Assembly (NCBI RefSeq): GCF_000425185.1
Contig: NZ_AULH01000005.1
Span: forward strand, 307,477-339,476
Length of the DNA: 32,000 nt
Direction: 5' to 3'
Origin: Pleomorphomonas koreensis DSM 23070
Lineage (GTDB): Bacteria; Pseudomonadota; Alphaproteobacteria; Rhizobiales; Pleomorphomonadaceae
Every line of letters starts with the position of its first letter. Position 1 is the stretch's first letter. Positions 15,344-32,000 of the stretch are shown here, piece by piece. The position numbers and the translations under genes are program-made. The notes under the pieces were generated by a model that had not been told where the DNA came from, ran no database searches, and saw only the letters and a list, made by a program, of their open reading frames with translations.

Positions 15344-17332
15344 TCAAAGTTCGATTCCGTCATCGGGGTTCAATGCCACCTGCCGCGCGACCATCCTCAT
15401 GCGCTGGCGCATGGCGCGGGCTTTGGCCGCGTCAACGTCCGGCTCGTCGTCCAGAAACTCGAACTCCTGTTCGGGCGATGGCGGCGGGGCGACGATTTCC
15501 TCTTGGCTTGGCAATTCCGGCTCGCGGCGGATGCCGGCATTGGCCGGATCGCCCTCGGCCCCGTCTGCGGCGGCCGGCGCGGAACGGCTTTCCGCCGCGA
15601 CCACGCGGCCGGACCAGTCATCGGCGGATGGGCTGGGCGCCAGCGGAGCGGCGACCAGATCGGGCGGAGTCAGGATGCGTTCCTGAAACCGCGCATCCTC
15701 GAAATAGCGGGCCTTGGTGGCGCGGATCGGCGGCGTGCCGGCGACCATGACGATTTCATCGGTGGGCGGAAGCTGCATGATTTCGCCCGGCGTGAGTAGC
15801 GGCCGGGCCGTCTCCTGCCGCGACACCATCAAATGCCCTAGCCATGGCGCAAGGCGATGGCCGGCGTAGTTTGTGGAATCGCGCAGCTCGGTCGCGGTGC
15901 CGAGCGCGTCGCTCACCCGCTTGGCCGTCCGCTCGTCATTCGTGGCGAAGCTGACGCGGACGTGGCAGTTGTCGAGGATAGCGTTGTTCGGCCCATAGGC
16001 GCGCTCGATCTGATTGAGGCTCTGCGCGATCAGGAAGCCCTTGAGGCCGTAGCCCGCCATGAACGCCAGGGCGCTCTCGAAGAAGTCGAGCCGGCCGAGG
16101 GCGGGAAACTCGTCCAACATGAGTAGGAGGCGATGGCGCTTGCCGGAGGTGTGCAATTCCTCGGTCAACCGCCTCCCGATCTGGTTGAGGATCAGGCGGA
16201 TAAGCGGCTTGGTGCGGTTTATGTCGGATGGCGGCACGACAAGGTAGAGCGTGACGGGCTGGCGGCTGTCGACCAGATCGGCAATGCGCCAGTCGCAACG
16301 TGCGGTGACGCGCGCCACCACGGGATCGCGGTAAAGGCCGAGAAACGACATGGCGGTGCTCAATACGCCCGACCGTTCATTCTCGGATTTGTTCAACAGC
16401 TCGCGGGCCGACGATGCGATGACGGGATGAACACCGGCCTCGCCGAGATGCGGCGTATCCATCATGGCGCGCAAGGTCGCCTCGACCGGGCGGCGCGGAT
16501 CGGACAGGAAGTTGGCGACGCCCGCCAGCGTCTTGTCCTTCTCCGCATAGAGAACATGCAGGATCGCGCCGACCAGAAGCGAATGAGAGGTCTTTTCCCA
16601 ATGGTTGCGCTTGTCGAGACTGCCTTCGGGATCGACCAGAATATCCGCGATATTCTGCACATCCCTGACCTCCCATTCCCCTTGCCGGACCTCCAGCAGC
16701 GGGTTGTAGGCGGACGATCTGGCATTGGTCGGATCGAACAGCAAGACCCGGCCATGCCTCGCGCGAAAGCCCGCTGTCAGCGTCCAGTTTTCCCCTTTTA
16801 TGTCGTGGACGATAGCGGATGCCGGCCATGTCAGCAGCGTCGGCACCACCAGCCCGACGCCTTTGCCGCTGCGCGTCGGGGCGAAGCATAGGACATGCTC
16901 GGGACCGTCATGGCGCAGATAGTCCCGGCCGTATCGGCCGAGCAGGACGCCATCGGGGCCGAGCAATCCGGCCGCGCGGATTTCTCGGTCCTCTGCCCAT
17001 CGCGCTGAACCGTAGGTGGCGACGTTGCGCGCCTCCCGTGCCCGGATGATCGACATGAGGATGGCGGCGGCGATGGCAAGAAAGCCGCCCGATACGGCGA
17101 TGATGCCGCCCTCGACGAAGATCGCGGGCGCATAGGCGTCGAATGAAAACCACCACCAGAAGAAGGCCGGCGGGTAGTAGATCGGCAGGCTCGCCAGCTC
17201 GAACCATGGATTGCCAAGCTGGGGCTGGAAGCCGAGGCGGAACGCTACCCATTGCGTCGCCGCCCACGTCATCACCAGAACGATGGTGAAGACTACGGCG
17301 ATTTGACCCCAAAGGATTCGGCCTCCGCGCAA
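15344..17332 (-). CDS. traG: Type IV coupling protein TraG (VirD4-like)
   Basis: 662 aa. N-terminal TM segments; Walker A APTRSGKG; LLMLDEF Walker B. The start codon is TTG 17332, preceded by GGAG; there is no in-frame ATG before the conserved ILWGQ. Confidence 0.92.
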   Translation of the reverse strand: MRGGRILWGQIAVVFTIVLVMTWAATQWVAFRLGFQPQLGNPWFELASLPIYYPPAFFWWWFSFDAYAPAIFVEGGIIAVSGGFLAIAAAILMSIIRAREARNVATYGSARWAEDREIRAAGLLGPDGVLLGRYGRDYLRHDGPEHVLCFAPTRSGKGVGLVVPTLLTWPASAIVHDIKGENWTLTAGFRARHGRVLLFDPTNARSSAYNPLLEVRQGEWEVRDVQNIADILVDPEGSLDKRNHWEKTSHSLLVGAILHVLYAEKDKTLAGVANFLSDPRRPVEATLRAMMDTPHLGEAGVHPVIASSARELLNKSENERSGVLSTAMSFLGLYRDPVVARVTARCDWRIADLVDSRQPVTLYLVVPPSDINRTKPLIRLILNQIGRRLTEELHTSGKRHRLLLMLDEFPALGRLDFFESALAFMAGYGLKGFLIAQSLNQIERAYGPNNAILDNCHVRVSFATNDERTAKRVSDALGTATELRDSTNYAGHRLAPWLGHLMVSRQETARPLLTPGEIMQLPPTDEIVMVAGTPPIRATKARYFEDARFQERILTPPDLVAAPLAPSPSADDWSGRVVAAESRSAPAAADGAEGDPANAGIRREPELPSQEEIVAPPPSPEQEFEFLDDEPDVDAAKARAMRQRMRMVARQVALNPDDGIEL

Positions 17333-17515: not shown

Positions 17516-18406
17516 TCAATTCGCTCGGACCAGCCGCCCCATGTCATTTGCAAGCGTCAGCAGATTGCGCAACGTCGCGCTGCGATTGAACGGCGACCAG
17601 ACAGCCGAGAAGGCAACAGGCTCCGGCTCATCGGCGAAGGGCAAGAAAACGATGCCGGTCGTCGGCAGACGTGCCGTAGCCTCGCCGACGATGGTGATGC
17701 CAAACCCCTGTCCGACCATGGACAGCAGAGTGCCACGCTCGACGTCGAAGCGCAGGATCGACGGCGTAGGCCAGCGCCCGGCATGACGTAGCACGATATG
17801 ATTATGAACCTGCGGGCCAGTGCCACCATGTCGAACAAGAAACGTCTCGCCCGCAAGTTCGGCCCATGTGACGACCGATTGCCCGGCGAGCGGATGCCGC
17901 TCCGGTAGCACCACCACAAGCGGTTCGGTCCATATGCAACGGGAATGGCAGTCGGGGAGTTCGGGCGTGCCCGCGACGAACGCCACGTCCAGCCGGTCGG
18001 CGCGAAGCTGCATGACCGCTTCGCGAGCCGTGCTCTCCGTGATTTCCACTTCGATGCCGGGATGAGCCTCCCGATACTGCGCGATCAGATCGGCAAGGAA
18101 GCTGCCGTAGATCAGGGCATGGATACCGATGCGAATCCGGCCGCTTTCTCCGGCTGCCGCCATGCCAGCCGTCTTCACCGCATGGTCGAGTTGATCGACT
18201 CCCGCCGCTATCCGCTCTACGAAGTGACGTCCGGCCTCCGTTAGTCGGACGCCCCGAGCATGGCGCTCGAAAAGAAGGATGCCAAGGTCTTCCTCTAGCG
18301 CTTTCACTCGTGCGCTGACACTGGATTGTGCGACGCCTAGCACTTTAGCCGCGTGACGGAAGTTCAAGAATTCAGCAACAGCTAAAGTCTGAATCAATGA
18401 CACCAT
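17516..18406 (-). CDS. LysR-family transcriptional regulator (TraR-like position)
   Basis: HTH LNFRHAAKVLGVAQSSVSARVKALEEDLG plus a substrate-binding domain. ATG 18406 preferred; an alternative upstream start exists at 18469. Confidence 0.88.
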   Translation of the reverse strand: MVSLIQTLAVAEFLNFRHAAKVLGVAQSSVSARVKALEEDLGILLFERHARGVRLTEAGRHFVERIAAGVDQLDHAVKTAGMAAAGESGRIRIGIHALIYGSFLADLIAQYREAHPGIEVEITESTAREAVMQLRADRLDVAFVAGTPELPDCHSRCIWTEPLVVVLPERHPLAGQSVVTWAELAGETFLVRHGGTGPQVHNHIVLRHAGRWPTPSILRFDVERGTLLSMVGQGFGITIVGEATARLPTTGIVFLPFADEPEPVAFSAVWSPFNRSATLRNLLTLANDMGRLVRAN

Positions 18407-18887
18407 TGGGATTCGCAACCCGAGGGGAGTTTTCCACTCTTGGCGGGCATCTGTCCTAGAGCGCCGCATGATGGTGCTCCGACAGATAAGAAAAAGTCGA
18501 ACTGGCTGAAATGACGTTGGCGACTAGCGCCCAAGCCAATCGCGCGGATCGAATGGCAAAATGGCGGTTTAGGTAGGCGGTGAACTGGCCTGAATAGATG
18601 CGTCCGCCCCGCAACGAGGCGTGCAGCATACGCTGCGTATTTTCTGGATTTTGCATTGGAGAAGCCTTGCAAGCGTCGCAATAACTTGCCGCATCCGCAA
18701 TCGCTTATCCGATCACGGACTCAAACCGACAAGCACGAAGCCGCTCACTGTCAGCGCGAACGGCTAGCGACGTGCCACAATCTCCAACACAAGCCTCTCC
18801 ATCGTAGGTGGAGAAAGGATAGACATCGGCGTGCCTCGTCGTCAACGCTGGAGAATTTGATTGCGATACAACCGAGGCGGGTTTGAT

Positions 18888-20942
18888 TCACAAACCAAGA
18901 CCTCTGGTTTTGCCGATCTGCCATGACACCGATCCGCCCTGCACGACGCCCATGACCTCGCGGCCGAGCTGGCGGTCGATAACCGGCCGCCACGGGACAA
19001 GCGTAAACTCGTGGGATTTCTCAACAACGGCGAACTTGCCACTGGATAGCTGCACGGTGCCGGTGAACTTGCCGCTGACGTTCTCGCTATCCGTAGCGGC
19101 ACGGAACGGCAGCCCTTTGCCCTCGGCCATCTCCCGGCCGACGCGGGCAACCTCCCGCTCGCGCAGCGTGGCGAGAAGGCTGCGCCGGTAGAAGATGCGG
19201 CCGTCCCGCGCTCGGCTGGCATCGCCCTGTTCGATATGATGCTCGCGGCGCTGCTCCATCGCCTCGCGCACCTGCTGGCCGAAGCCGGCCGGGACAAGAT
19301 CGGCGGTCTCGCCATGGATCAGCCGCCGGTCGAGCCAGGTCGCGCCGTCCGATCCGATCTGCTTGTTCAGATCGACCGGGGAAAGAACGCGCACGCTGGC
19401 CTGCCGGTCGCGGCCGGCGTCATAGGCGGCAGCCCGGCTCTCGAAATCGTCGGGGATGCGCCATTGGTCGGCGTCGATCCGCTCGACGATCCCGGCGCGG
19501 CGCAATGCCTCCAGCCGGCGGACATGAGCATCGACATAACCCTCATAGTCGCCGCCGGGAACGCGCCCCTCAAACTTGGCCTGCTCCAGATGACGACTCG
19601 GCCGATAGATGCCGTCCTCCGCGATGGCCGTGATGGTGCGGTCGGACGGCCGGGCCGTCACCTCGGCCGGGCCGATCTGGACGACGCTACCGATGCGGGC
19701 GTCCTCCAGCCGCTCGGGCGCGATGCCGGCGAGGTGGTGCGTCCGCCCGTCGATCCCGTCCACCACGATTGTCAGGTTCTCCCCTAGCTCGTCGGACAGG
19801 TGCTTGTCCACGACGCGGCCGACGATGGGCGTCTCGGGCGCTCCGTCATGGATTTGAAAGCTCATGAGATCGCGTTCGCCACCGTGCGCGCCGAGCGCCT
19901 TCTGCATGATGCGGATAATGTCGCCACGCTCGCCCAACTCGCGCAGGGCCGGCTCCATGTCCTTGCTCAATTCCCAAACGCCGGGCGCGTGCGCGGTCGC
20001 CAGCCCCATCTTCTCCAGCTTGGCGAGACGGCGAAGGCGCAGGGTCCGCTCGAACTGCCGCCTCGGCGCTGCCGGTTCATGGCGAAGGTCGAGGAAACGG
20101 GCATCGGCTTCGTCGGCCATGGCGCGGTCGATCCGGGTGAAACGGTCTTGGTCGATCTCGGCCGACAGCTTGCGGGTCTGCTCGATCTCGGTCACGGGGC
20201 CGAGTTCGAGACTGGCAAGCTCGCTGGCCCGCTCGCGCAGGCCAGCGGAAAGATAGTCGCCGTTGATGACTAGATCCCCGCCCGTGTCGTCGCGGCCGTT
20301 GACGATGATATGCACATGGGGATGGCCGGTGTTGTAGTGATTGACGGCGACCCAATCGAGTTTGGTGCCGAGGTCGGCTTCCACCTGCTTCATGAAATCG
20401 CGGGTGTAGGCCGTGAGGTCCGACAGCTCCACGCCGTCCTCGGGCGAGACGATGAATCTGAATTGGTGGCGGTCGTCCTTGCCGCGATCAAGGAAGGCGT
20501 CGCCATCGGCGCGGTCCTCGGTCGCCGAATAGAGCCGGCCGCGCTCGCCGTCGCGTGACGTGCCGTCGCGTTGGACATAGCGTAGATGCGCGCGGGCGCG
20601 ACCGCCCTTCCACGCGGCCCGGACGCTGCGCTGCTTGACGATGACGCGGCGACTGCCCGGCTGGCGATGATGCCAGTTGCCCGAGATATTGCGGGCACGC
20701 ACGAAGCTCGCGCCCCGGCCGCGCTTCACGCCCTTGCCGCTGGCGACCACGGCACGGGACCGGCCCGGCGATGACGGGCGGGCGGATGATGGCATGGAAG
20801 GATCGCGTGAGGCTGCCGCCTGATGCTGCCGGGTGATCTTTCTGACCTGCGTGAAAAAGCTCTTGGTCTTGCCAGCCTTCGGCGTGTCGGATCGGATGCG
20901 GCCGGGCTTCGGACGGAAGCGGTTTTCGTCGTCGGCGCTCAA
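18888..20942 (-). CDS. Relaxase/mobilisation nuclease with DUF3363-type C-terminal domain
   Basis: 684 aa. N-terminal DDENRFRPKPGRIRS; histidine triad NTGHPHVHIIVNG. The start is TTG 20942 with GGAG 8 nt upstream. Confidence 0.9.
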   Translation of the reverse strand: MSADDENRFRPKPGRIRSDTPKAGKTKSFFTQVRKITRQHQAAASRDPSMPSSARPSSPGRSRAVVASGKGVKRGRGASFVRARNISGNWHHRQPGSRRVIVKQRSVRAAWKGGRARAHLRYVQRDGTSRDGERGRLYSATEDRADGDAFLDRGKDDRHQFRFIVSPEDGVELSDLTAYTRDFMKQVEADLGTKLDWVAVNHYNTGHPHVHIIVNGRDDTGGDLVINGDYLSAGLRERASELASLELGPVTEIEQTRKLSAEIDQDRFTRIDRAMADEADARFLDLRHEPAAPRRQFERTLRLRRLAKLEKMGLATAHAPGVWELSKDMEPALRELGERGDIIRIMQKALGAHGGERDLMSFQIHDGAPETPIVGRVVDKHLSDELGENLTIVVDGIDGRTHHLAGIAPERLEDARIGSVVQIGPAEVTARPSDRTITAIAEDGIYRPSRHLEQAKFEGRVPGGDYEGYVDAHVRRLEALRRAGIVERIDADQWRIPDDFESRAAAYDAGRDRQASVRVLSPVDLNKQIGSDGATWLDRRLIHGETADLVPAGFGQQVREAMEQRREHHIEQGDASRARDGRIFYRRSLLATLREREVARVGREMAEGKGLPFRAATDSENVSGKFTGTVQLSSGKFAVVEKSHEFTLVPWRPVIDRQLGREVMGVVQGGSVSWQIGKTRGLGL

Positions 20943-25792: not shown

Positions 25793-26576
25793 TCAACGCT
25801 TGTCGGGCTTGATCGGATAGTGGAGCAGAAGGCGATAGCCCCCGCGCATCATCTTGATGCCGTGCGCGACCAGGCGGCGGGCTTTGTTCTTGCGCGGATC
25901 GCTCTCGAAATCCTCCTTCGTGCCGCGAAAGCCGAGCAGGACTTCCGCGATGGTGCGATAGCTCTCGGCGCGCAGCCGGGCGTCGAGCGCGCGCAGCGAC
26001 AGGATATGCCATTGCCGGAGTTGGGCGGGAACGGCCCGGAAATCGGGACCGGGCGCGCGACCATTGAGGGATCGCCAGAAACGGCGGACAGCGTGAGCGC
26101 GTAGCTCCAGAAAAGCATCCATCGGCAGCGTGACGGCGTAAAACGCGGCGGCGTCCGGCACCGCCTCGGGCAGCCAGAATTGATGTTTGACGCCATCCAC
26201 CTGCCAGATACCGTGCCAGCCATCGGCAGCGCGGTGCAGGTCGAGGCCGTCGAGGTGCGCCAACGTCAATATCGGTTCGGTGTCGTCGTCCTTGTGATCG
26301 ACCGGAGACAACATCACGGCTTGCGGTTGAAGGCGCGGACTCCAGATCGGCGATTGCCGATCATGCGGCGCGTCGGGATCGCACGGGAAATCGCAAACCC
26401 CAGCGAGCCGCGAACGTTTCCAGGTCGCGGCCGTTCGGTCCTTCAGCCAACGCCATGGTACGAAACTCCCGGCGATATTCGTCGTTGCGGCGCAGGTATT
26501 CCCAAGCGAAACCAGCGGCAGGGATGTGCTTTGTGTGCCCGTATGCCGCCGGAGATCGCCAATCGATGCTGAGCAT
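25793..26576 (-). CDS. DUF6499 + DUF2285 (FseA-like) transfer activator gene split between two frames; needs a +1 shift near 26388-26390
   Basis: Frame A runs 26576->26361 (MLSIDWRSPAAYGHTKHIPAAGFAWEYLRRNDEYRREF...ARWGLRFPVRSRRAA*). Frame B (+1) continues ...FPCDPDAPHDRQSPIW... to the stop at 25793. The joined product is 260 aa. Confidence 0.7.
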
Positions 26577-26650
26577 GGCGTCACCTCCCCAAGCCGGGAC
26601 GCTGGGCAGCGCCCGGCAAAGAGAGGTTCAAGGATCACAGGAAATATAGA

Positions 26651-26680
26651 AGCCGCTCAAAGCAGATACCTTGAGCGGCT
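26651..26680 (-). terminator. Hairpin downstream of ardA
   Basis: Arms agccgctcaa (26651-26660) / ttgagcggct (26671-26680), a 10-bp stem. On the minus strand it is followed by tctatatttcc. Confidence 0.45.
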
Positions 26681-26770
26681 AACCCGATCATTTTTGGTGT
26701 TCTCTGCTTGGCGATGGCCTGTGATTTCGCGATGCCTGCCCGTATGAGCACGGACTGGCCAGTCATGTTC

Positions 26771-27298
26771 TCATCTGCTGGAAAATACATGCACCTCGCC
26801 GTGTGCCGTCTCTATGGTGAACAAGTCACCGCTCATAGCTGCGTCGCGAGCCATCGCCTGCCAATCGACATAGTAGCGCAGCGCCTCGGGAATCGTGACG
26901 CTCTCGGTGGTCAATTCCTCCAAGTAGTCGGCGAGGCTCTCGAACTGACCATGATAACAGTCCTGCAAGGCGGTTTCGGCTTGGTCCATGCCGCCGACGA
27001 ACTGCTCCAGCAAGCCCGCACCAAGTGTGCCATGCTCTGCGATGAAAGCGCCCATACGTGCCACACTGTCGATGCCGGCATATTCGGAGACGCTAACGCC
27101 CTCGAAACCTTCATAGTCGTGGATGGCGTATTCCTCTGCGTGCTCGATGGGAGACCGTGCGAGCATAGCCGCAATCTCGTCCCTGATCTCGTCGGCATCC
27201 TGATCCGCGTCGATCCAAGCCCCATGCAAATAGCCATTATTGTAGGCGGCAAGGCAGGCGACATAGATGCGGGGATTGCTGTCGGATATGTTTGTCAT
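26771..27298 (-). CDS. ardA: Antirestriction protein ArdA (DNA mimic, anti type I R-M)
   Basis: 175 aa, very acidic. RIYVACLAAYNNGYLHGAWIDADQD...AIHDYEGFEG...YVDWQAMARD...HVF matches the ArdA family pattern. Confidence 0.88.
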   Translation of the reverse strand: MTNISDSNPRIYVACLAAYNNGYLHGAWIDADQDADEIRDEIAAMLARSPIEHAEEYAIHDYEGFEGVSVSEYAGIDSVARMGAFIAEHGTLGAGLLEQFVGGMDQAETALQDCYHGQFESLADYLEELTTESVTIPEALRYYVDWQAMARDAAMSGDLFTIETAHGEVHVFSSR

Positions 27299-27703
27299 GT
27301 CTCTGATTCTCGCGTCTGAAGGTCAGCGAAGCGGAACGCCGCGCCTGACCTTCTGGCCGTCGCCGAGACTGGGTGTGCAAACGGAGAGAGGCTTCGCGGG
27401 GAACCGGCTGCACGGAGCGCGCCACGCGCGGAGGAAGCTGGGCGGAAGCCTTTCGAATTGCGCCGAGGGCGGAGCCCTAAGTTCTAAGAATGGGCGTTAT
27501 CATAGTTCAGTATTACGCCCGCACGCTCATGCGAGGCGAATTCAACGAGGCATCACGGCGCGCAGCCGTGGGGGGCGGTGAAGGCGATGACGACAGAACG
27601 GAGCGGGTGAAGCCCCGATCCGATGACGATAATTCCCTCGCCACCAAGCAAGGCCGCCGACGCCGTACCGGCAAGGGCTTTGGCCGCGGCCGCGATTAGG
27701 CGC

Positions 27704-27752
27704 TTGACATCCGAACTATGTGTATATAAACTATACCCATAAGGTTTATATA
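27704..27752 (+). promoter_or_regulatory. Sigma70-type promoter with an overlapping operator-like inverted repeat, in front of the WYL regulator
   Basis: TTGACA 27704-27709, 17-nt spacer, TAAACT 27727-27732. Perfect 9-bp inverted repeat tatataaac 27723-27731 / gtttatata 27744-27752. Confidence 0.6.
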
Positions 27753-27770
27753 TGGAAATCGGAGACAGTC

Positions 27771-28625
27771 GTGCGTTGGGGTGTGGAAAAGCGCTTAGAG
27801 TTCATCGAGTTCCGCCTTTTCTGGGAAGGCGGGATTAATCGCGCTGATATTATCGACCACTTCGGCGTGTCCGTTCCCCAAGCCTCAAAGGATCTCACGC
27901 TTTACGAAGAAAAGGCACCCGGAAACCTGCTCTATGACAAGAGCGCAAAGAGGTACATGGCGTCGCCGCATTTCAAGCCGGTTTTTCTCGAACCGCACGC
28001 CGATATGTATCTCGCGCAGCTGCAAACAGAGCCGTTAACCGGAATTATTGAAGACAGCTGGCTTGCTGCCGTTCCGGCGTTTGACATGATGCCGGTGCCC
28101 CACCGAAGCGTGCGTGTCGATGTCCTTCGCAAGCTTGTGGGCGCGATCCGTAGCCGCCGGGCTCTCAAGATCAAATACCAGTCGATGAACACAAGGCGCC
28201 CTGACCCCGAGTGGAGGTCGATTTCTCCGCATGCCTTTGGGCATGACGGACTGCGGTGGCATGTCCGTGCGTTCTGCCATATCGACCGGAAGTTCAAGGA
28301 CTTCATTCTTTCCCGCTGCCTTGATTCAGGCGACGTCGAAGAAGCCCTCGCGACAGCTAGTTCCGACCGCTTGTGGCACGAGTTTTTCGATGTCGTACTG
28401 ACTGCAAATCCTGCCCTTAGTGATAGCCAGCGTGCGGTTATTGAGCAGGACTACGAAATGGTGGGGGGCACCGTGACCGTCCCCGTTCGGAAGGCATTGC
28501 TCTACTATTTTCAGAAGCGGTTGCGATTGGATATTGCCGACAAGGTAGATCGGCCACAGGAAATCCCCGTGGTGGTCAGCAATGCGTCCGAATTCGCCTC
28601 GGCATTAGCGGAGGCGACTGCATGA
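27771..28625 (+). CDS. WYL-domain transcriptional regulator (wHTH + WYL + C-terminal domain), BrxR/CapW-like
   Basis: GTG 27771 with GGAGA 6 nt upstream; the track ATG 27720 lies inside the promoter. VRWGVEKRLEFIEFRLFWEGGINRADIIDHFGVSVPQASKDLTLYEE...ISPHAFGHDGLRWHVRAFCH... Confidence 0.8.
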   Translation: MRWGVEKRLEFIEFRLFWEGGINRADIIDHFGVSVPQASKDLTLYEEKAPGNLLYDKSAKRYMASPHFKPVFLEPHADMYLAQLQTEPLTGIIEDSWLAAVPAFDMMPVPHRSVRVDVLRKLVGAIRSRRALKIKYQSMNTRRPDPEWRSISPHAFGHDGLRWHVRAFCHIDRKFKDFILSRCLDSGDVEEALATASSDRLWHEFFDVVLTANPALSDSQRAVIEQDYEMVGGTVTVPVRKALLYYFQKRLRLDIADKVDRPQEIPVVVSNASEFASALAEATA

Positions 28626-31600
28626 AGTCGCTCAACTTTGAGATTCTCCGCCCTAACTGGCCTGAGCTTGCTGGGCTCGGCGGATTTGCTGAATCCTACG
28701 CTCACGCTGACCCTGCTAGCGCGCTTGTGAAGCTGCGTCTATTCGCAGAGAATCTGACCAAGGACATTTATCGGGATTTGCGTCTGCCGAAACCCGAACA
28801 GCCGACTTTCGTCGATCTGCTCAAGAACGATGCATTCATCGCGATTACGCCGAAGGTCGTTCTCGACAAACTTCATGCTTTGCGAATCCACGGGAACAAG
28901 GCTGCTCATGGGGAACCTGTTCATTCTCAAGGCGCTCTCTGGCTCCTGAGGGAAGCCCACGACCTCGCACGCTGGCTCTGCGTGCAATACGGGCGAGCGA
29001 GTGCGGAAGAGCTAGGTACCTTTTCCCAGCCCCAGACGCCCGATCAAACCGACGAGAGGGACCGTCGGAGGATTCTTGAGAAGCTCGCTGCCCAGGAAGC
29101 GCAGATGGATGCGCTACTTTCGGAGCTTGAGGAGACACGTTCAAAGGCAATCGCGGCGGAGAAGGAGGCTGCTGACCTCAAAGCTATTGCGCAGTCCGGA
29201 CAGAAATCTGCTGATGAGCTGAATTTCAGTGAATCGGAGACGCGAACCCGTCTTATTGATAGCCTGTTGGCGAGCGCTGGTTGGGATGTCAGCGCAGGAT
29301 TGAAAAGCTCTGCCCAGGTCGGAAAAGAGATTGAGCTCGACAATCAACCGACAACGAGCGGTATCGGGTACGCGGACTACGTCCTCTGGGATGAGAATGG
29401 TAATCCGTTGGCCGTGATTGAGGCCAAAAAGACAGCCGTGGATGCCGATCGCGGCCGTCATCAAGCCAAGCTCTATGCAGACAGTCTGGAAAAGAAATTT
29501 GGTCACCGTCCGGTGATCTTTTACACGAATGGATTTGATATCTGGATCTGGGATGATGCGCAGGGTTACCCGCCACGCCGGTTATTCGGCTTCTATTCCA
29601 GAGACAGCCTGCAGCATCTCGCAAATTTTCAACGCCTGCAGAAGAAGCCGCTAGACAGCATCCAGGTCAACGAGGACATCGTAAACCGGCTTTATCAGCT
29701 TGAGGCCATAAAGCGCGTCGCCGAACGTTTCTCGCAAAAGCATCGAAGAGCGCTGATTGTTCAGGCTACAGGCACAGGTAAGACGCGCGTCGCAATAGCT
29801 CTCACGGATCTGCTTATTCGGGCTGGGTGGGTAAAGCGCGTTCTCTTTCTGTGTGACAGAAAAGAGCTGAGAAAGCAGGCAAAGAACGCTTTCAACGACT
29901 TCCTCTCTGAACCAACGCGTATTCTCACCTCAAGCGTCCGGTCAAACGCCAGCGAGCGTGTGTTTCTGGCGACCTATCCGGCCGTTCAGAAGGTATTTCA
30001 GTCGTTTGATCCCGGCTTTTTTGACCTCATCATCGCGGATGAATCCCACCGAAGCATCTATAACATCTACGGTGACATCTTTCATTATTTCGACTGCCAT
30101 CAGATAGGGCTGACCGCGACACCGGTTGATTTCGTTACGCGCAGCACCTTCAAGCTCTTTGGTTGCGAAGGACAGCTGCCGACGTCGAACTACGATTTAG
30201 AGCAGGCTGTCGAAGAACGTTACCTAACGCCATTCGAGGTATACGAGCACACAACGCAATTTCTGCGTGAAGGCATCACTCTCGATGGACTCTCGTCCGC
30301 TCAGATTGAGGAACTAGAGGCGCAGGGGGAAGACCCTGCGCAATACGACTTTTCATCCGAACAAATCGATAAGGTGATCTACAACATGGACACCAACAGG
30401 GCGATCCTTCGCAACCTGATGGAAAACGGCATTACCGATACGACCGGTCAAGTTCTCGGCAAGAGCATCATCTTTGCCCGCAACCATGAACACGCAATGC
30501 TGCTTCGTCAGCTCTTCGACGAAATGTACCCGCAGTACGCCGGGAAATTTTGTCAGGTTATCGACAACTACGATCCCAGAGCTGAGCAGCTCATCGACGA
30601 TTTCAAAGGCGAGGGAACGAACAACGATCTGACGATTGCTATTTCAGTCGATATGCTCGATACGGGCATCGATATACCGGCAATCGTCAATCTCGTATTC
30701 GCTAGGCCGATCAAATCGCCGGTGAAGTTCTGGCAGATGATTGGACGTGGAACGCGTCTTTGCCCTGACTTATTCGGGCCGGGCAAGGATAAACGCGTTT
30801 TCCGCATATTCGATCATTGGGGCAACTTCGCTCGTTTCGAGATGGGTTACAAACCAGCGGAACCGGCGCAGGGCAAGCCGCTCGCGCAGCTTCTATTCGA
30901 GGAGCGGCTGACGCTGGCTGAAACAGCGCTCCAAAAAAGCGAACCCGCAGTCTTCGACACGATCATCGCTTTGGTTTCTCAGGACATCAACGCACTCCCG
31001 GAAGAGTCGATCTCTGTGCGGGAAAAGTGGAAAGAAAAGCGCGCGCTTTCCAAACCTGACGTGCTCAAGGCCTTCGCTCCTGCGACCGTCGCCCGTCTCA
31101 GGCAGGAGATCGCCCCGCTGATGCAGTGGCGAAACATTCGTGGTTTGGGTGACGCTCTTGCGCTCGACCTTCTGATCGCACGTATGCAGCTCGCGGTTTT
31201 ACGGGGCTCGGGAGCTCTGGCTGATTTGAAAATCGATTTGATGGACCGCCTCGCCGCGCTTCAGATGCATCTCAATCCCGTGCGTGAAAAGGCTGAGGCT
31301 ATCAAGCGTGTGAAAGCGAACACGTTCTGGTCCGGCGTTAGTGTTGCGGACCTTGAACTGGCCCGGCTGGAACTCCGGGAGATCATGCATCACCGCGCAA
31401 AGGGCGGCTCCCAGGGTGTTCCGCCAAAGATTATCGACGTCACCGAAGATGCCGGTCAGGTGCAATACGCGCGCCGATCAGCCAGTCTGAAATCGGTAGA
31501 CATGAGGGCCTATCATCAGATCGTGGAATCTGAGCTCAAGAAGCATTTCGATAGCAATCCGGTGCTCAGAAAGATCCGGGCAGGGCATACGGTATCGGAC

Positions 31601-32000
31601 AAGGAGATCGATGCTCTTGTATCGCTGATCCTTACCCAAAACCCGGATGTCCGGCGCGAGCATCTTGAGGAGTTTTTCAGCGAACTGGCAGGCCCGCTTT
31701 ATCTCGCCATCCGCATGATCGTGGGGATGGACCCCGAAGCGGTCCGCGAAAAGTTCACCGCCTTTGTGCAGTCGCATCCAAAGCTGAGCGCAAAGCAGAC
31801 CCGCTTCCTGTCTCTTCTGCAGAATCACATCGCCCGGTACGGCACGATCGAGGTTGAACGTCTCTACGATGATCCATTCACCGTGATTGACGCGGATGGT
31901 CCGGACGGCGTTTTCGAACAGGAAAGCGATCTAATCGATCTAATTGAAATTGTGCGTTCTTTTGGCCCGAAAGCGGAAAAGCGCGTTGAAGAAAACCCGA
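28622..32000 (+). CDS. Large DUF4145-like + PD-(D/E)xK nuclease + SF2 (DEAD/DEAH, ResIII) helicase + EcoEI-R-C-like protein (type I restriction R-subunit-like); 3' end beyond the window
   Basis: Absent from the track because it has no stop. I checked the frame in multiple blocks from ATG 28622 to 32000 (1126 codons) and found no in-frame stop. Motifs: GYADYVLW...AVIEAKK, QATGTGKTR, IIADESHRS, LTATP, QMIGRGTRL. ATGA overlap with the WYL gene stop. Confidence 0.85.
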   Translation, partial: MKSLNFEILRPNWPELAGLGGFAESYAHADPASALVKLRLFAENLTKDIYRDLRLPKPEQPTFVDLLKNDAFIAITPKVVLDKLHALRIHGNKAAHGEPVHSQGALWLLREAHDLARWLCVQYGRASAEELGTFSQPQTPDQTDERDRRRILEKLAAQEAQMDALLSELEETRSKAIAAEKEAADLKAIAQSGQKSADELNFSESETRTRLIDSLLASAGWDVSAGLKSSAQVGKEIELDNQPTTSGIGYADYVLWDENGNPLAVIEAKKTAVDADRGRHQAKLYADSLEKKFGHRPVIFYTNGFDIWIWDDAQGYPPRRLFGFYSRDSLQHLANFQRLQKKPLDSIQVNEDIVNRLYQLEAIKRVAERFSQKHRRALIVQATGTGKTRVAIALTDLLIRAGWVKRVLFLCDRKELRKQAKNAFNDFLSEPTRILTSSVRSNASERVFLATYPAVQKVFQSFDPGFFDLIIADESHRSIYNIYGDIFHYFDCHQIGLTATPVDFVTRSTFKLFGCEGQLPTSNYDLEQAVEERYLTPFEVYEHTTQFLREGITLDGLSSAQIEELEAQGEDPAQYDFSSEQIDKVIYNMDTNRAILRNLMENGITDTTGQVLGKSIIFARNHEHAMLLRQLFDEMYPQYAGKFCQVIDNYDPRAEQLIDDFKGEGTNNDLTIAISVDMLDTGIDIPAIVNLVFARPIKSPVKFWQMIGRGTRLCPDLFGPGKDKRVFRIFDHWGNFARFEMGYKPAEPAQGKPLAQLLFEERLTLAETALQKSEPAVFDTIIALVSQDINALPEESISVREKWKEKRALSKPDVLKAFAPATVARLRQEIAPLMQWRNIRGLGDALALDLLIARMQLAVLRGSGALADLKIDLMDRLAALQMHLNPVREKAEAIKRVKANTFWSGVSVADLELARLELREIMHHRAKGGSQGVPPKIIDVTEDAGQVQYARRSASLKSVDMRAYHQIVESELKKHFDSNPVLRKIRAGHTVSDKEIDALVSLILTQNPDVRREHLEEFFSELAGPLYLAIRMIVGMDPEAVREKFTAFVQSHPKLSAKQTRFLSLLQNHIARYGTIEVERLYDDPFTVIDADGPDGVFEQESDLIDLIEIVRSFGPKAEKRVEENP

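Follow-up and report, generated by a model that had tools for sequence, protein, structure and literature searches.

Promoter, predicted operator and first two genes of a probable type I restriction-modification operon carried on a conjugative element of Pleomorphomonas koreensis DSM 23070

Described relatives and the P. koreensis locus

The closest described relatives of the locus analysed in the present work are, on the one hand, EcoKI, the type IA restriction-modification enzyme of Escherichia coli K-12, and, on the other, the transcriptional repressors CapW (from CBASS of S. maltophilia) and BrxR (from BREX of Acinetobacter). The operators of CapW are palindromes of 19–24 bp overlapping the promoter -10 (PMC9122588), and an RWHVR motif represents the route by which CapW-type repressors bind single-stranded DNA (ssDNA); proteins of the CapW/BrxR family have been described as often associated with restriction-modification systems (both from PMC11662680). 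In the survey of Picton et al. 2022 (PMC9122601), type I restriction accounted for 34 of the 210 defence systems located downstream of BrxR homologues. The locus considered here occupies the right end (27704–32000) of a 32,000-nucleotide stretch of DNA from Pleomorphomonas koreensis DSM 23070 (contig NZ_AULH01000005.1, positions 307,477–339,476; the whole stretch is hereafter called the window). As judged from its sequence, a type I restriction-modification operon very probably begins in this region, with its promoter, its operator and its first two genes, and forms part of the cargo of a conjugative element. We read it as the ordinary start of such an operon, in which a predicted repressor gene is followed by the gene for the cutting subunit (HsdR), and not as a new single-protein defence. 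The vicinity of a CapW/BrxR-type regulator and type I restriction is an already known association (Picton et al. 2022).

The likeness to EcoKI concerns both the gene order (hsdR, hsdM, hsdS) and the domain order of HsdR, i.e., a DUF4145-like domain, a charged linker, a PD-(D/E)xK nuclease, a superfamily 2 (SF2) motor and an EcoEI_R_C domain. The two loci differ in that hsdR and hsdM are separated by a gap of 200 nt in K-12, whereas here they overlap and nothing points to a modification promoter of their own. Moreover, no regulator is annotated beside the K-12 hsdR, whereas here a CapW/BrxR-type gene precedes it, and two extra genes are located after hsdS. With CapW and BrxR, the regulator of the window shares the winged helix-turn-helix (wHTH)-WYL-WCX architecture and a palindrome placed over the -10, but those two proteins belong to CBASS and BREX, respectively, while here the regulator stands ahead of a type I operon that it would control. 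Unlike CapW and BrxR, it also shares an operon with the first structural gene, to which it is translationally coupled. Relatives also stand ahead of other defences, namely BREX, Hma, Zorya and type III restriction-modification. The survey of Picton et al. 2022 (PMC9122601), which considered a neighbourhood of 50 kb, reported the same association, but described neither the six-gene cassette nor the operator dealt with below.

HsdR and the genes beyond the window

The second gene of the region, hsdR, codes for the restriction subunit and runs on the plus strand from 28622 to the window end (28622–32000), so that 1126 of its 1130 codons are contained in the window. A first-pass annotation of this DNA, made by reading the sequence alone, had described it as an open reading frame (ORF) of 1126 codons joining DUF4145, nuclease, helicase and EcoEI_R_C parts in this order; both the length and all the motif coordinates proved to be exact, and Pfam supported each part, with matches to DUF4145, HSDR_N, ResIII, Helicase_C and EcoEI_R_C (besides WYL in the regulator). 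Starting from the N-terminus, the protein carries a DUF4145 (HEPN-superfamily) domain (aa 23–110, 28688–28951; Pfam 1.7e-6), followed by a charged helical linker (aa 151–187, 29072–29182), which corresponds to the peptide indicated in that annotation and probably forms a coiled coil, a character deduced from its composition only. The nuclease core of the PD-(D/E)xK type (D252/E267/K269, 29375–29428) aligns with the EcoKI stretch GFADYVLF...VVEAKR, and the HSDR_N model matches aa 250–314 (2.5e-10). The SF2 translocase motor (29684–30757) consists of ResIII (aa 355–502; 1.5e-36) and Helicase_C (aa 613–712; 2.6e-6) and harbors the Walker A motif ATGTGKT (29765–29785), the DESH motif (30038–30049) and the QMIGRGTR motif (30734–30757). 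Lastly, an EcoEI_R_C domain is located at the C-terminal end (aa 964–1110, 31511–31951; Pfam 5.8e-19). The PADLOC REase_I model PDLC03047 spans residues 1–1114 with an E-value of 1.3e-284, and a crystallised HsdR fragment of Vibrio vulnificus (3h1t) matches the motor at 1.5e-36.

Probing the Protein Data Bank with phmmer did not retrieve EcoKI HsdR, the only matches being 3h1t, SauUSI and RadD; the EcoKI hsdR sequence was taken from the E. coli K-12 genome for a direct comparison. The BLASTP alignment of the two proteins extends from residue 1 through the motor (27% identity over residues 1–731, E 3e-53), and EcoKI HsdR matches the identical Pfam domains, with EcoEI_R_C at 2.6e-30 and DUF4145 at 7.7e-4 (aa 30–107), the latter value being below the curated cutoff. 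The same alignment places a longer charged segment of EcoKI HsdR in the position equivalent to the linker. Since EcoKI HsdR shares the DUF4145-like domain and the coiled coil, the N-terminal domain of the P. koreensis protein is no new sensor; in fact, DUF4145 is a HEPN domain, and its fusions to restriction endonuclease and SF2 helicase modules were described in 2013 (PMC3710099). According to these comparisons, the HsdR of the window would work like a type IA enzyme, although it lies outside that named family. A further candidate, the MADS system, was rejected, as the matches to MAD2, MAD3 and MAD5 are far under their cutoffs (e.g., 122 vs. 720 bits).

The genes located beyond base 32000 can be followed on related contigs. 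The identical regulator of 284 aa occurs in 11 public contigs, and those retrieved are 98.4–99.8% identical to the window at the DNA level up to its last base, a diverged copy (L004) being 95% identical. In the near-identical contigs, HsdR is 1130 residues long, with four more codons and a terminus NERS* that is reached 14 nt past the window end (contig L002). The hsdM gene (509 aa) comes directly after it through the junction TAATG, in which the stop codon TAA and the hsdM ATG overlap by 1 nt; its product matches the PADLOC model MTase_I (1.9e-176) and the Pfam domains HsdM_N and N6_Mtase. It is directly followed, through an ATGA overlap, by hsdS (394 aa), whose product matches Specificity_I (6.7e-82) and contains two Methylase_S stretches. 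The same block is carried by the Methylocella tundrae plasmid NZ_LR536452, whose HsdR is 71% identical to that of the window.

These data decide between the two possibilities that the first-pass annotation had depicted for hsdR. One of them was an undescribed defence in which a single nuclease-helicase polypeptide, gated by the regulator and lacking M and S subunits, would use DUF4145 as a new sensor. It agreed with the absence of hsdM and hsdS from the window itself and with the HEPN type of the N-terminal domain, since some stand-alone defences, e.g., RAZR, work through a HEPN domain. This alternative fails, since hsdM (with its 1-nt overlap) and hsdS follow immediately downstream in the near-identical contigs, and neither gene is missing from any judgeable related locus in which hsdR comes straight after the regulator; moreover, the N-terminal domain and the layout are shared by EcoKI HsdR, a subunit that depends on HsdM and HsdS. 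We consider it extremely improbable. The other possibility, that is the R gene of an EcoEI-like type I system with the M and S genes past base 32000, stood as far as the position of the partner genes is concerned, but not in its EcoEI likeness, the layout being that of EcoKI rather than that of EcoEI/EcoAI. The assignment to the EcoEI/EcoAI group (type IB) was rejected, as the alignment with the EcoAI model begins only at aa 203 and its score is lower than that of the EcoKI-type model.

The HEPN type of the N-terminal domain might also imply that this HsdR and the EcoKI-like HsdRs possess a second activity as ribonuclease (RNase). Among 41 HsdR N-termini, EcoKI included, most retain the HEPN-type motif R88-x3-N92-x3-H96 (28883–28909), R88 being found in 31 sequences and N92 and H96 in 39 each. 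Its R and H stand as far apart as the catalytic R146 and H154 of RAZR, an RNase with a DUF4145 domain. However, nine sequences from hsdM-first loci have K in position 88, and the conservation of the motif may reflect a structural or assembly role. In addition, the titles and abstracts listed by one literature search mentioned no RNase activity of any HsdR, nor any function for its N-terminal domain. On balance, an RNase activity appears improbable.

The regulator gene, its promoter and its predicted operator

The first gene of the operon (27771–28625, plus strand) codes for a 284-aa protein of the CapW/BrxR family and is called in the same way in public assemblies. It starts with GTG, 5 nt after a ribosome-binding site GGAGA that was read from the sequence (27761–27765, plus strand), and its stop codon overlaps the hsdR start codon as ATGA (28622–28625). 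The WYL/BrxR-like nature proposed for it at first reading was borne out by a Pfam WYL match (1.5e-8) and by full-length matches to the CapW of S. maltophilia (7tb6, 1.7e-58) and to the BrxR of Acinetobacter (7t8k, 3.2e-45); two further CapW structures, 7tb5 and 9c5g, also align over the full length of the regulator. The precomputed Pfam domains (WHD_BrxR, WYL and BrxR_CTD) correspond to the wHTH-WYL-WCX architecture. In S. maltophilia CapW, the residues R32, S42, Q45 and S47 contact DNA (PMC9122588), and they align with R24, S34, Q37 and S39 of the window protein, respectively. The WYL domain harbors the RWHVR motif (aa 162–166, 28254–28268, plus strand), the ssDNA-binding signature of CapW-type repressors. 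All these features identify the protein, by homology, as a predicted CapW/BrxR-family repressor.

A genome scan with the regulator retrieved 80 loci encoding relatives at 49–71% identity. The gene directly downstream of the regulator is hsdR in 28 of them and hsdM in 11, so that hsd genes occupy this position in 39 of the 80 loci, the remaining 41 harboring other cargo. The first genes of this other cargo were sampled, and nine out of ten match known or candidate defence models, including BrxA of BREX, HmaA of Hma, ZorA of Zorya, a type III methyltransferase and PDC-M45. A modular cargo behind this regulator clade is the behaviour already published for BrxR. As for the coupling between the first two genes, the stop/start overlap of regulator and hsdR is found here and in most relatives. 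Five loci (L013, L015, L042, L049 and L073) have only a partial match to hsdR directly after an intact regulator gene, and in L013 and L073 just 51–82 hsdR codons match, which suggests that the regulator was retained while the cargo behind it was exchanged.

The predicted operon promoter is of the sigma-70 type (27704–27732, plus strand), with TTGACA from 27704, a spacer of 17 nt and the -10 TAAACT at 27727–27732, and it agrees with the consensus in 10 out of 12 positions. Taken alone, this match is within chance, as two such sites occur in 2 kb against 1.0 expected. No other strong plus-strand promoter precedes the six packed genes in the extended contig L002, and a TTGACA box with a TATAAA-like -10 recurs upstream of related regulators. 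An internal hsdM promoter was also sought, and only a weak plus-strand site (9/12), lying inside hsdR, was found.

The promoter, the perfect 9-bp inverted repeat across its -10 (27723–27731 / 27744–27752), the GGAGA/GTG start at 27771 and the ATGA overlap had all been placed correctly at first reading. The repeat is present as described, but it represents only the outer arms of a 30-bp imperfect palindrome, TATATAAACTATA-CCCA-TAAGGTTTATATA (27723–27752, strand not assigned), in which 11 out of 13 positions match per arm; it belongs to a longer, conserved predicted operator. This palindrome spans the -10 and, likely, the transcription start, which is expected near 27739. The predicted operator of the window regulator, AAACTATA-N4-TATAGTTT, was derived in this analysis by sequence only; within 27715–27760 its half-sites read AAACTATA and TAAGGTTT, and the core AAACTATACCCATAAGGTTT lies at 27728–27747.

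Related regulators have the conserved motif AAACTATA-N4-TATAGTTT in their upstream regions; it is perfect in L022 and L029, and its arms measure 17 bp in L085. A best core match of at least 12 out of 16 positions was found in 51 of the 78 upstream regions (150 nt each) against 9 of 780 control windows taken from the same loci; as coding, GC-rich DNA prevails in the control windows, the contrast is somewhat inflated, although the shared sequence is still plain by eye. The consensus AAACTATANNNNTATAGTTT was derived from the other loci and not from the window. With no more than three mismatches allowed, it matches the 32-kb window once, at 27728–27747, and never in 100 shuffled sequences. On these grounds, the inverted repeat, and the predicted operator it belongs to, are beyond chance.

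The position of the operator over the -10 corresponds to the arrangement of a repressor. It is worth considering, in principle, that the regulator might instead activate transcription, as the WYL regulator DriD does, or control only its own gene, the hsdRMS genes being served by other promoters. Activators do exist among WYL regulators, BrxR is dispensable for defence in Acinetobacter BREX, and a gap of 178 nt separates the regulator from hsdR in two Rhizobium loci. Nevertheless, the nearest solved relatives over the full length are the repressors CapW and BrxR, the operator lies over the -10, the stop/start overlap is found here and in most relatives, and the only other promoter-like site on the plus strand of the operon is the weak 9/12 one. 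We therefore regard an activator, or a regulator confined to its own gene, as very improbable.

If the regulator is a repressor, the following scenario can be depicted. A regulator dimer would bind, by homology with its relatives, the palindrome at 27723–27752, and its presence on the -10 would keep the expression of the whole operon low, from the regulator gene itself to the hsd genes coupled to it. When DNA damage or an invading DNA gives rise to ssDNA, this would bind the WYL domain through the RWHVR motif and release the repressor. The hsdR gene is translationally coupled to the regulator gene. HsdR, HsdM and HsdS would assemble in the usual type I complex, which would methylate the host target sites; in the case of unmethylated sites, DNA would be pulled in by the SF2 motor and cut by the PD-(D/E)xK centre. 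The sequences document the gene content, the domain architecture, the conservation of motifs and operator, and the linkage of hsdM and hsdS, while DNA binding, repression, ssDNA sensing, restriction and methylation by the operon products are activities that we infer from the protein families.

Several points weigh against a type I operon controlled in this way. The hsdM and hsdS genes are located outside the window, and their linkage comes from contigs that are near-identical to it, but not proven to represent the same molecule. HsdR misses the NCBIfam equivalog cutoffs both for the EcoKI type (NF008521, 337 vs. 729 bits) and for the EcoAI type (NF046051, 263 vs. 550 bits); at the equivalog level, the system falls outside the named type I families. 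Furthermore, the right half-site of the window has two mismatches to the family core, the 95%-identical variant L004 carries another change in the outer arm of the operator, and the Methylocella homologue lacks a clear palindrome, with none of at least 8 bp near its promoter; the Methylocella subgroup seems to have a diverged operator box. Lastly, hsdR is placed ahead of hsdM on one promoter, an order that does not account for the escape of a new host from self-restriction. In the EcoKI and EcoAI families, self-restriction is handled after translation by ClpXP.

The conjugative backbone and the genes behind hsdS

The conjugative backbone covers positions 1–24000 of the window and is mostly encoded on the minus strand. 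It includes Trb-type proteins (TrbI, a CagX-family protein, TrbL and a T2SSE-family secretion ATPase) and a probable TrbE-type ATPase, together with a large serine recombinase (1247–2905), a coupling protein (15344–17332), a LysR regulator (17516–18469) and a DUF3363 relaxase (18888–20942). An antirestriction gene, ardA (26771–27298, minus strand; Pfam 2.3e-42), precedes the type I operon at a distance of about 470 nt, the two being divergently transcribed. Near 27530, the window ceases to resemble other conjugative elements and the GC content also falls: it is 0.646 for 1–27300 vs. 0.542 for 27704–32000, which confirms a drop that had been estimated by eye. The operon is cargo placed beside the backbone ardA, in agreement with the first-pass annotation, which had proposed defence cargo on a conjugative element.

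The element carries a type I enzyme and also ArdA, an inhibitor of type I enzymes. Between ardA and the operon promoter, a 69-codon ORF (27490–27699, plus strand) is called as a gene in public assemblies; it has no NCBIfam match and no precomputed Pfam match on record, and it may not be a real gene. In the region upstream of ardA (27299–27700, minus strand), a single-strand promoter hairpin was considered and rejected, the folding being no better than that of shuffled sequences (z = -0.82). No match was obtained from an Rfam scan of 26500–32000. The related contig L001 carries an IS110 insertion that is absent from the window.

Outside the window, 5.4–8 kb past its end, two further genes follow hsdS (L002:7391–10005, corresponding to L001:16964–19578), separated from it by 9 nt and overlapping each other by 1 nt. 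This pair is present in 17 of the 18 judgeable hsdR-first loci, the exception being L030, which has hsdRMS without it. The Methylocella plasmid carries the pair as well, and so do two contigs to which distant homologues of the second protein led. The first gene codes for a 563-aa ABC ATPase (AAA_15/AAA_21, the former at 4.2e-18) with a DUF3696 tail (aa 517–562, 9.7e-6), whose best PADLOC matches are PDC-M55A, Menshen NsnB (1.5e-38) and HEC-03B, with AriA matched in part (1.5e-19). The second one codes for a 307-aa protein that has no Pfam, NCBIfam or PADLOC match; the 120 homologues listed, out of 199 found, are all unnamed or "hypothetical". Its AlphaFold model has a pLDDT of 93, and part of it matches proteins of the phospholipase D (PLD) superfamily, including the restriction endonuclease SauUSI and PLD3 (Foldseek, E about 1e-4). 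The residues D160, H193, H239 and R241 are invariant in the family, the last two forming the motif H239-x-R241.

In the Menshen system (NsnABC), NsnB is an ABC ATPase whose DUF3696 tail holds NsnC, and NsnC consists of an inactive PIN domain plus a variable effector, one effector class being PLD-like with an HDR motif (PMC12065111). The locus likewise combines a DUF3696-tailed ABC ATPase with a small, two-domain putative nuclease, but it lacks an NsnA gene: no DUF262/ParB (NsnA) gene was found among the called genes of L001–L004, L092 and L093. Taken together, the pair resembles a module of the NsnB/NsnC type that lacks NsnA as its sensor. An assignment to PARIS was rejected, as the 307-aa partner has no Toprim/DUF4435 (AriB) match and the matched part of its model is PLD-like. 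RloA/RloB, found in Campylobacter hsd loci, also form a pair inside a type I locus, but RloB is a Toprim protein, while the effector here is PLD-like. RloA/RloB exemplify the known accessory pairs embedded in hsd loci, which may function independently.

The position of the pair raises the possibility that the ATPase and the PLD-like protein work with the type I enzyme, which would either replace NsnA or, when blocked by DNA mimics, make the pair fire as in PARIS. The recurrence of the pair, the packing of the genes with no strong internal promoter, the similarity of the ATPase to NsnB and, in part, to AriA, and the invariant H239-x-R241 of a partly PLD-like protein, set beside the PLD-like, HDR-bearing class of NsnC effectors (PMC12065111), are all in line with it. 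Nevertheless, adjacency is no proof of functional coupling, L030 does without the pair, and the Foldseek E-values are modest; we regard a cooperation of this kind as unlikely. A little less likely still is the fuller version, in which the six packed genes would be one composite immune unit, with the pair reading the state of the type I enzyme under a single ssDNA-sensing repressor. A Menshen-type effector module that had lost its own NsnA could, in such a unit, fire when ArdA or Ocr DNA mimics block the type I enzyme.

A second operator-like box, AAACTATATGGGTCTATTAT, was observed farther downstream (L001:19732–19751, about 10159–10178 in L002). It departs from the family consensus in three positions and is placed between the -35 and the -10 of a strong promoter (11/12), ahead of a DUF2188 gene (PADLOC PDC-S16) and of a ThsB-like TIR gene. 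A divergent DUF2188 gene adjoins the regulator in 10 related loci, 8 of which belong to the hsdM-first class. The DUF2188-TIR pair may be under the control of the same regulator.

As far as a new defence is concerned, the main result is plainly negative and gives no ground for pursuing one here: the giant DUF4145-nuclease-helicase corresponds to an ordinary HsdR of the EcoKI style, with its partners encoded immediately beyond the window. Novelty may reside in the appended pair alone, and the six-gene cassette, which recurs, brings an unannotated family of PLD-like proteins and an NsnB-like ATPase together with type I restriction-modification. With regard to the regulator family, one CapW/BrxR clade now has a defined, conserved sequence as its predicted operator, which eases the design of experiments on binding and on release by ssDNA. 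As for the organism, the predicted repressor is translationally coupled to hsdR on a conjugative element, and the operon may be used for studying how restriction genes become established following conjugative transfer.

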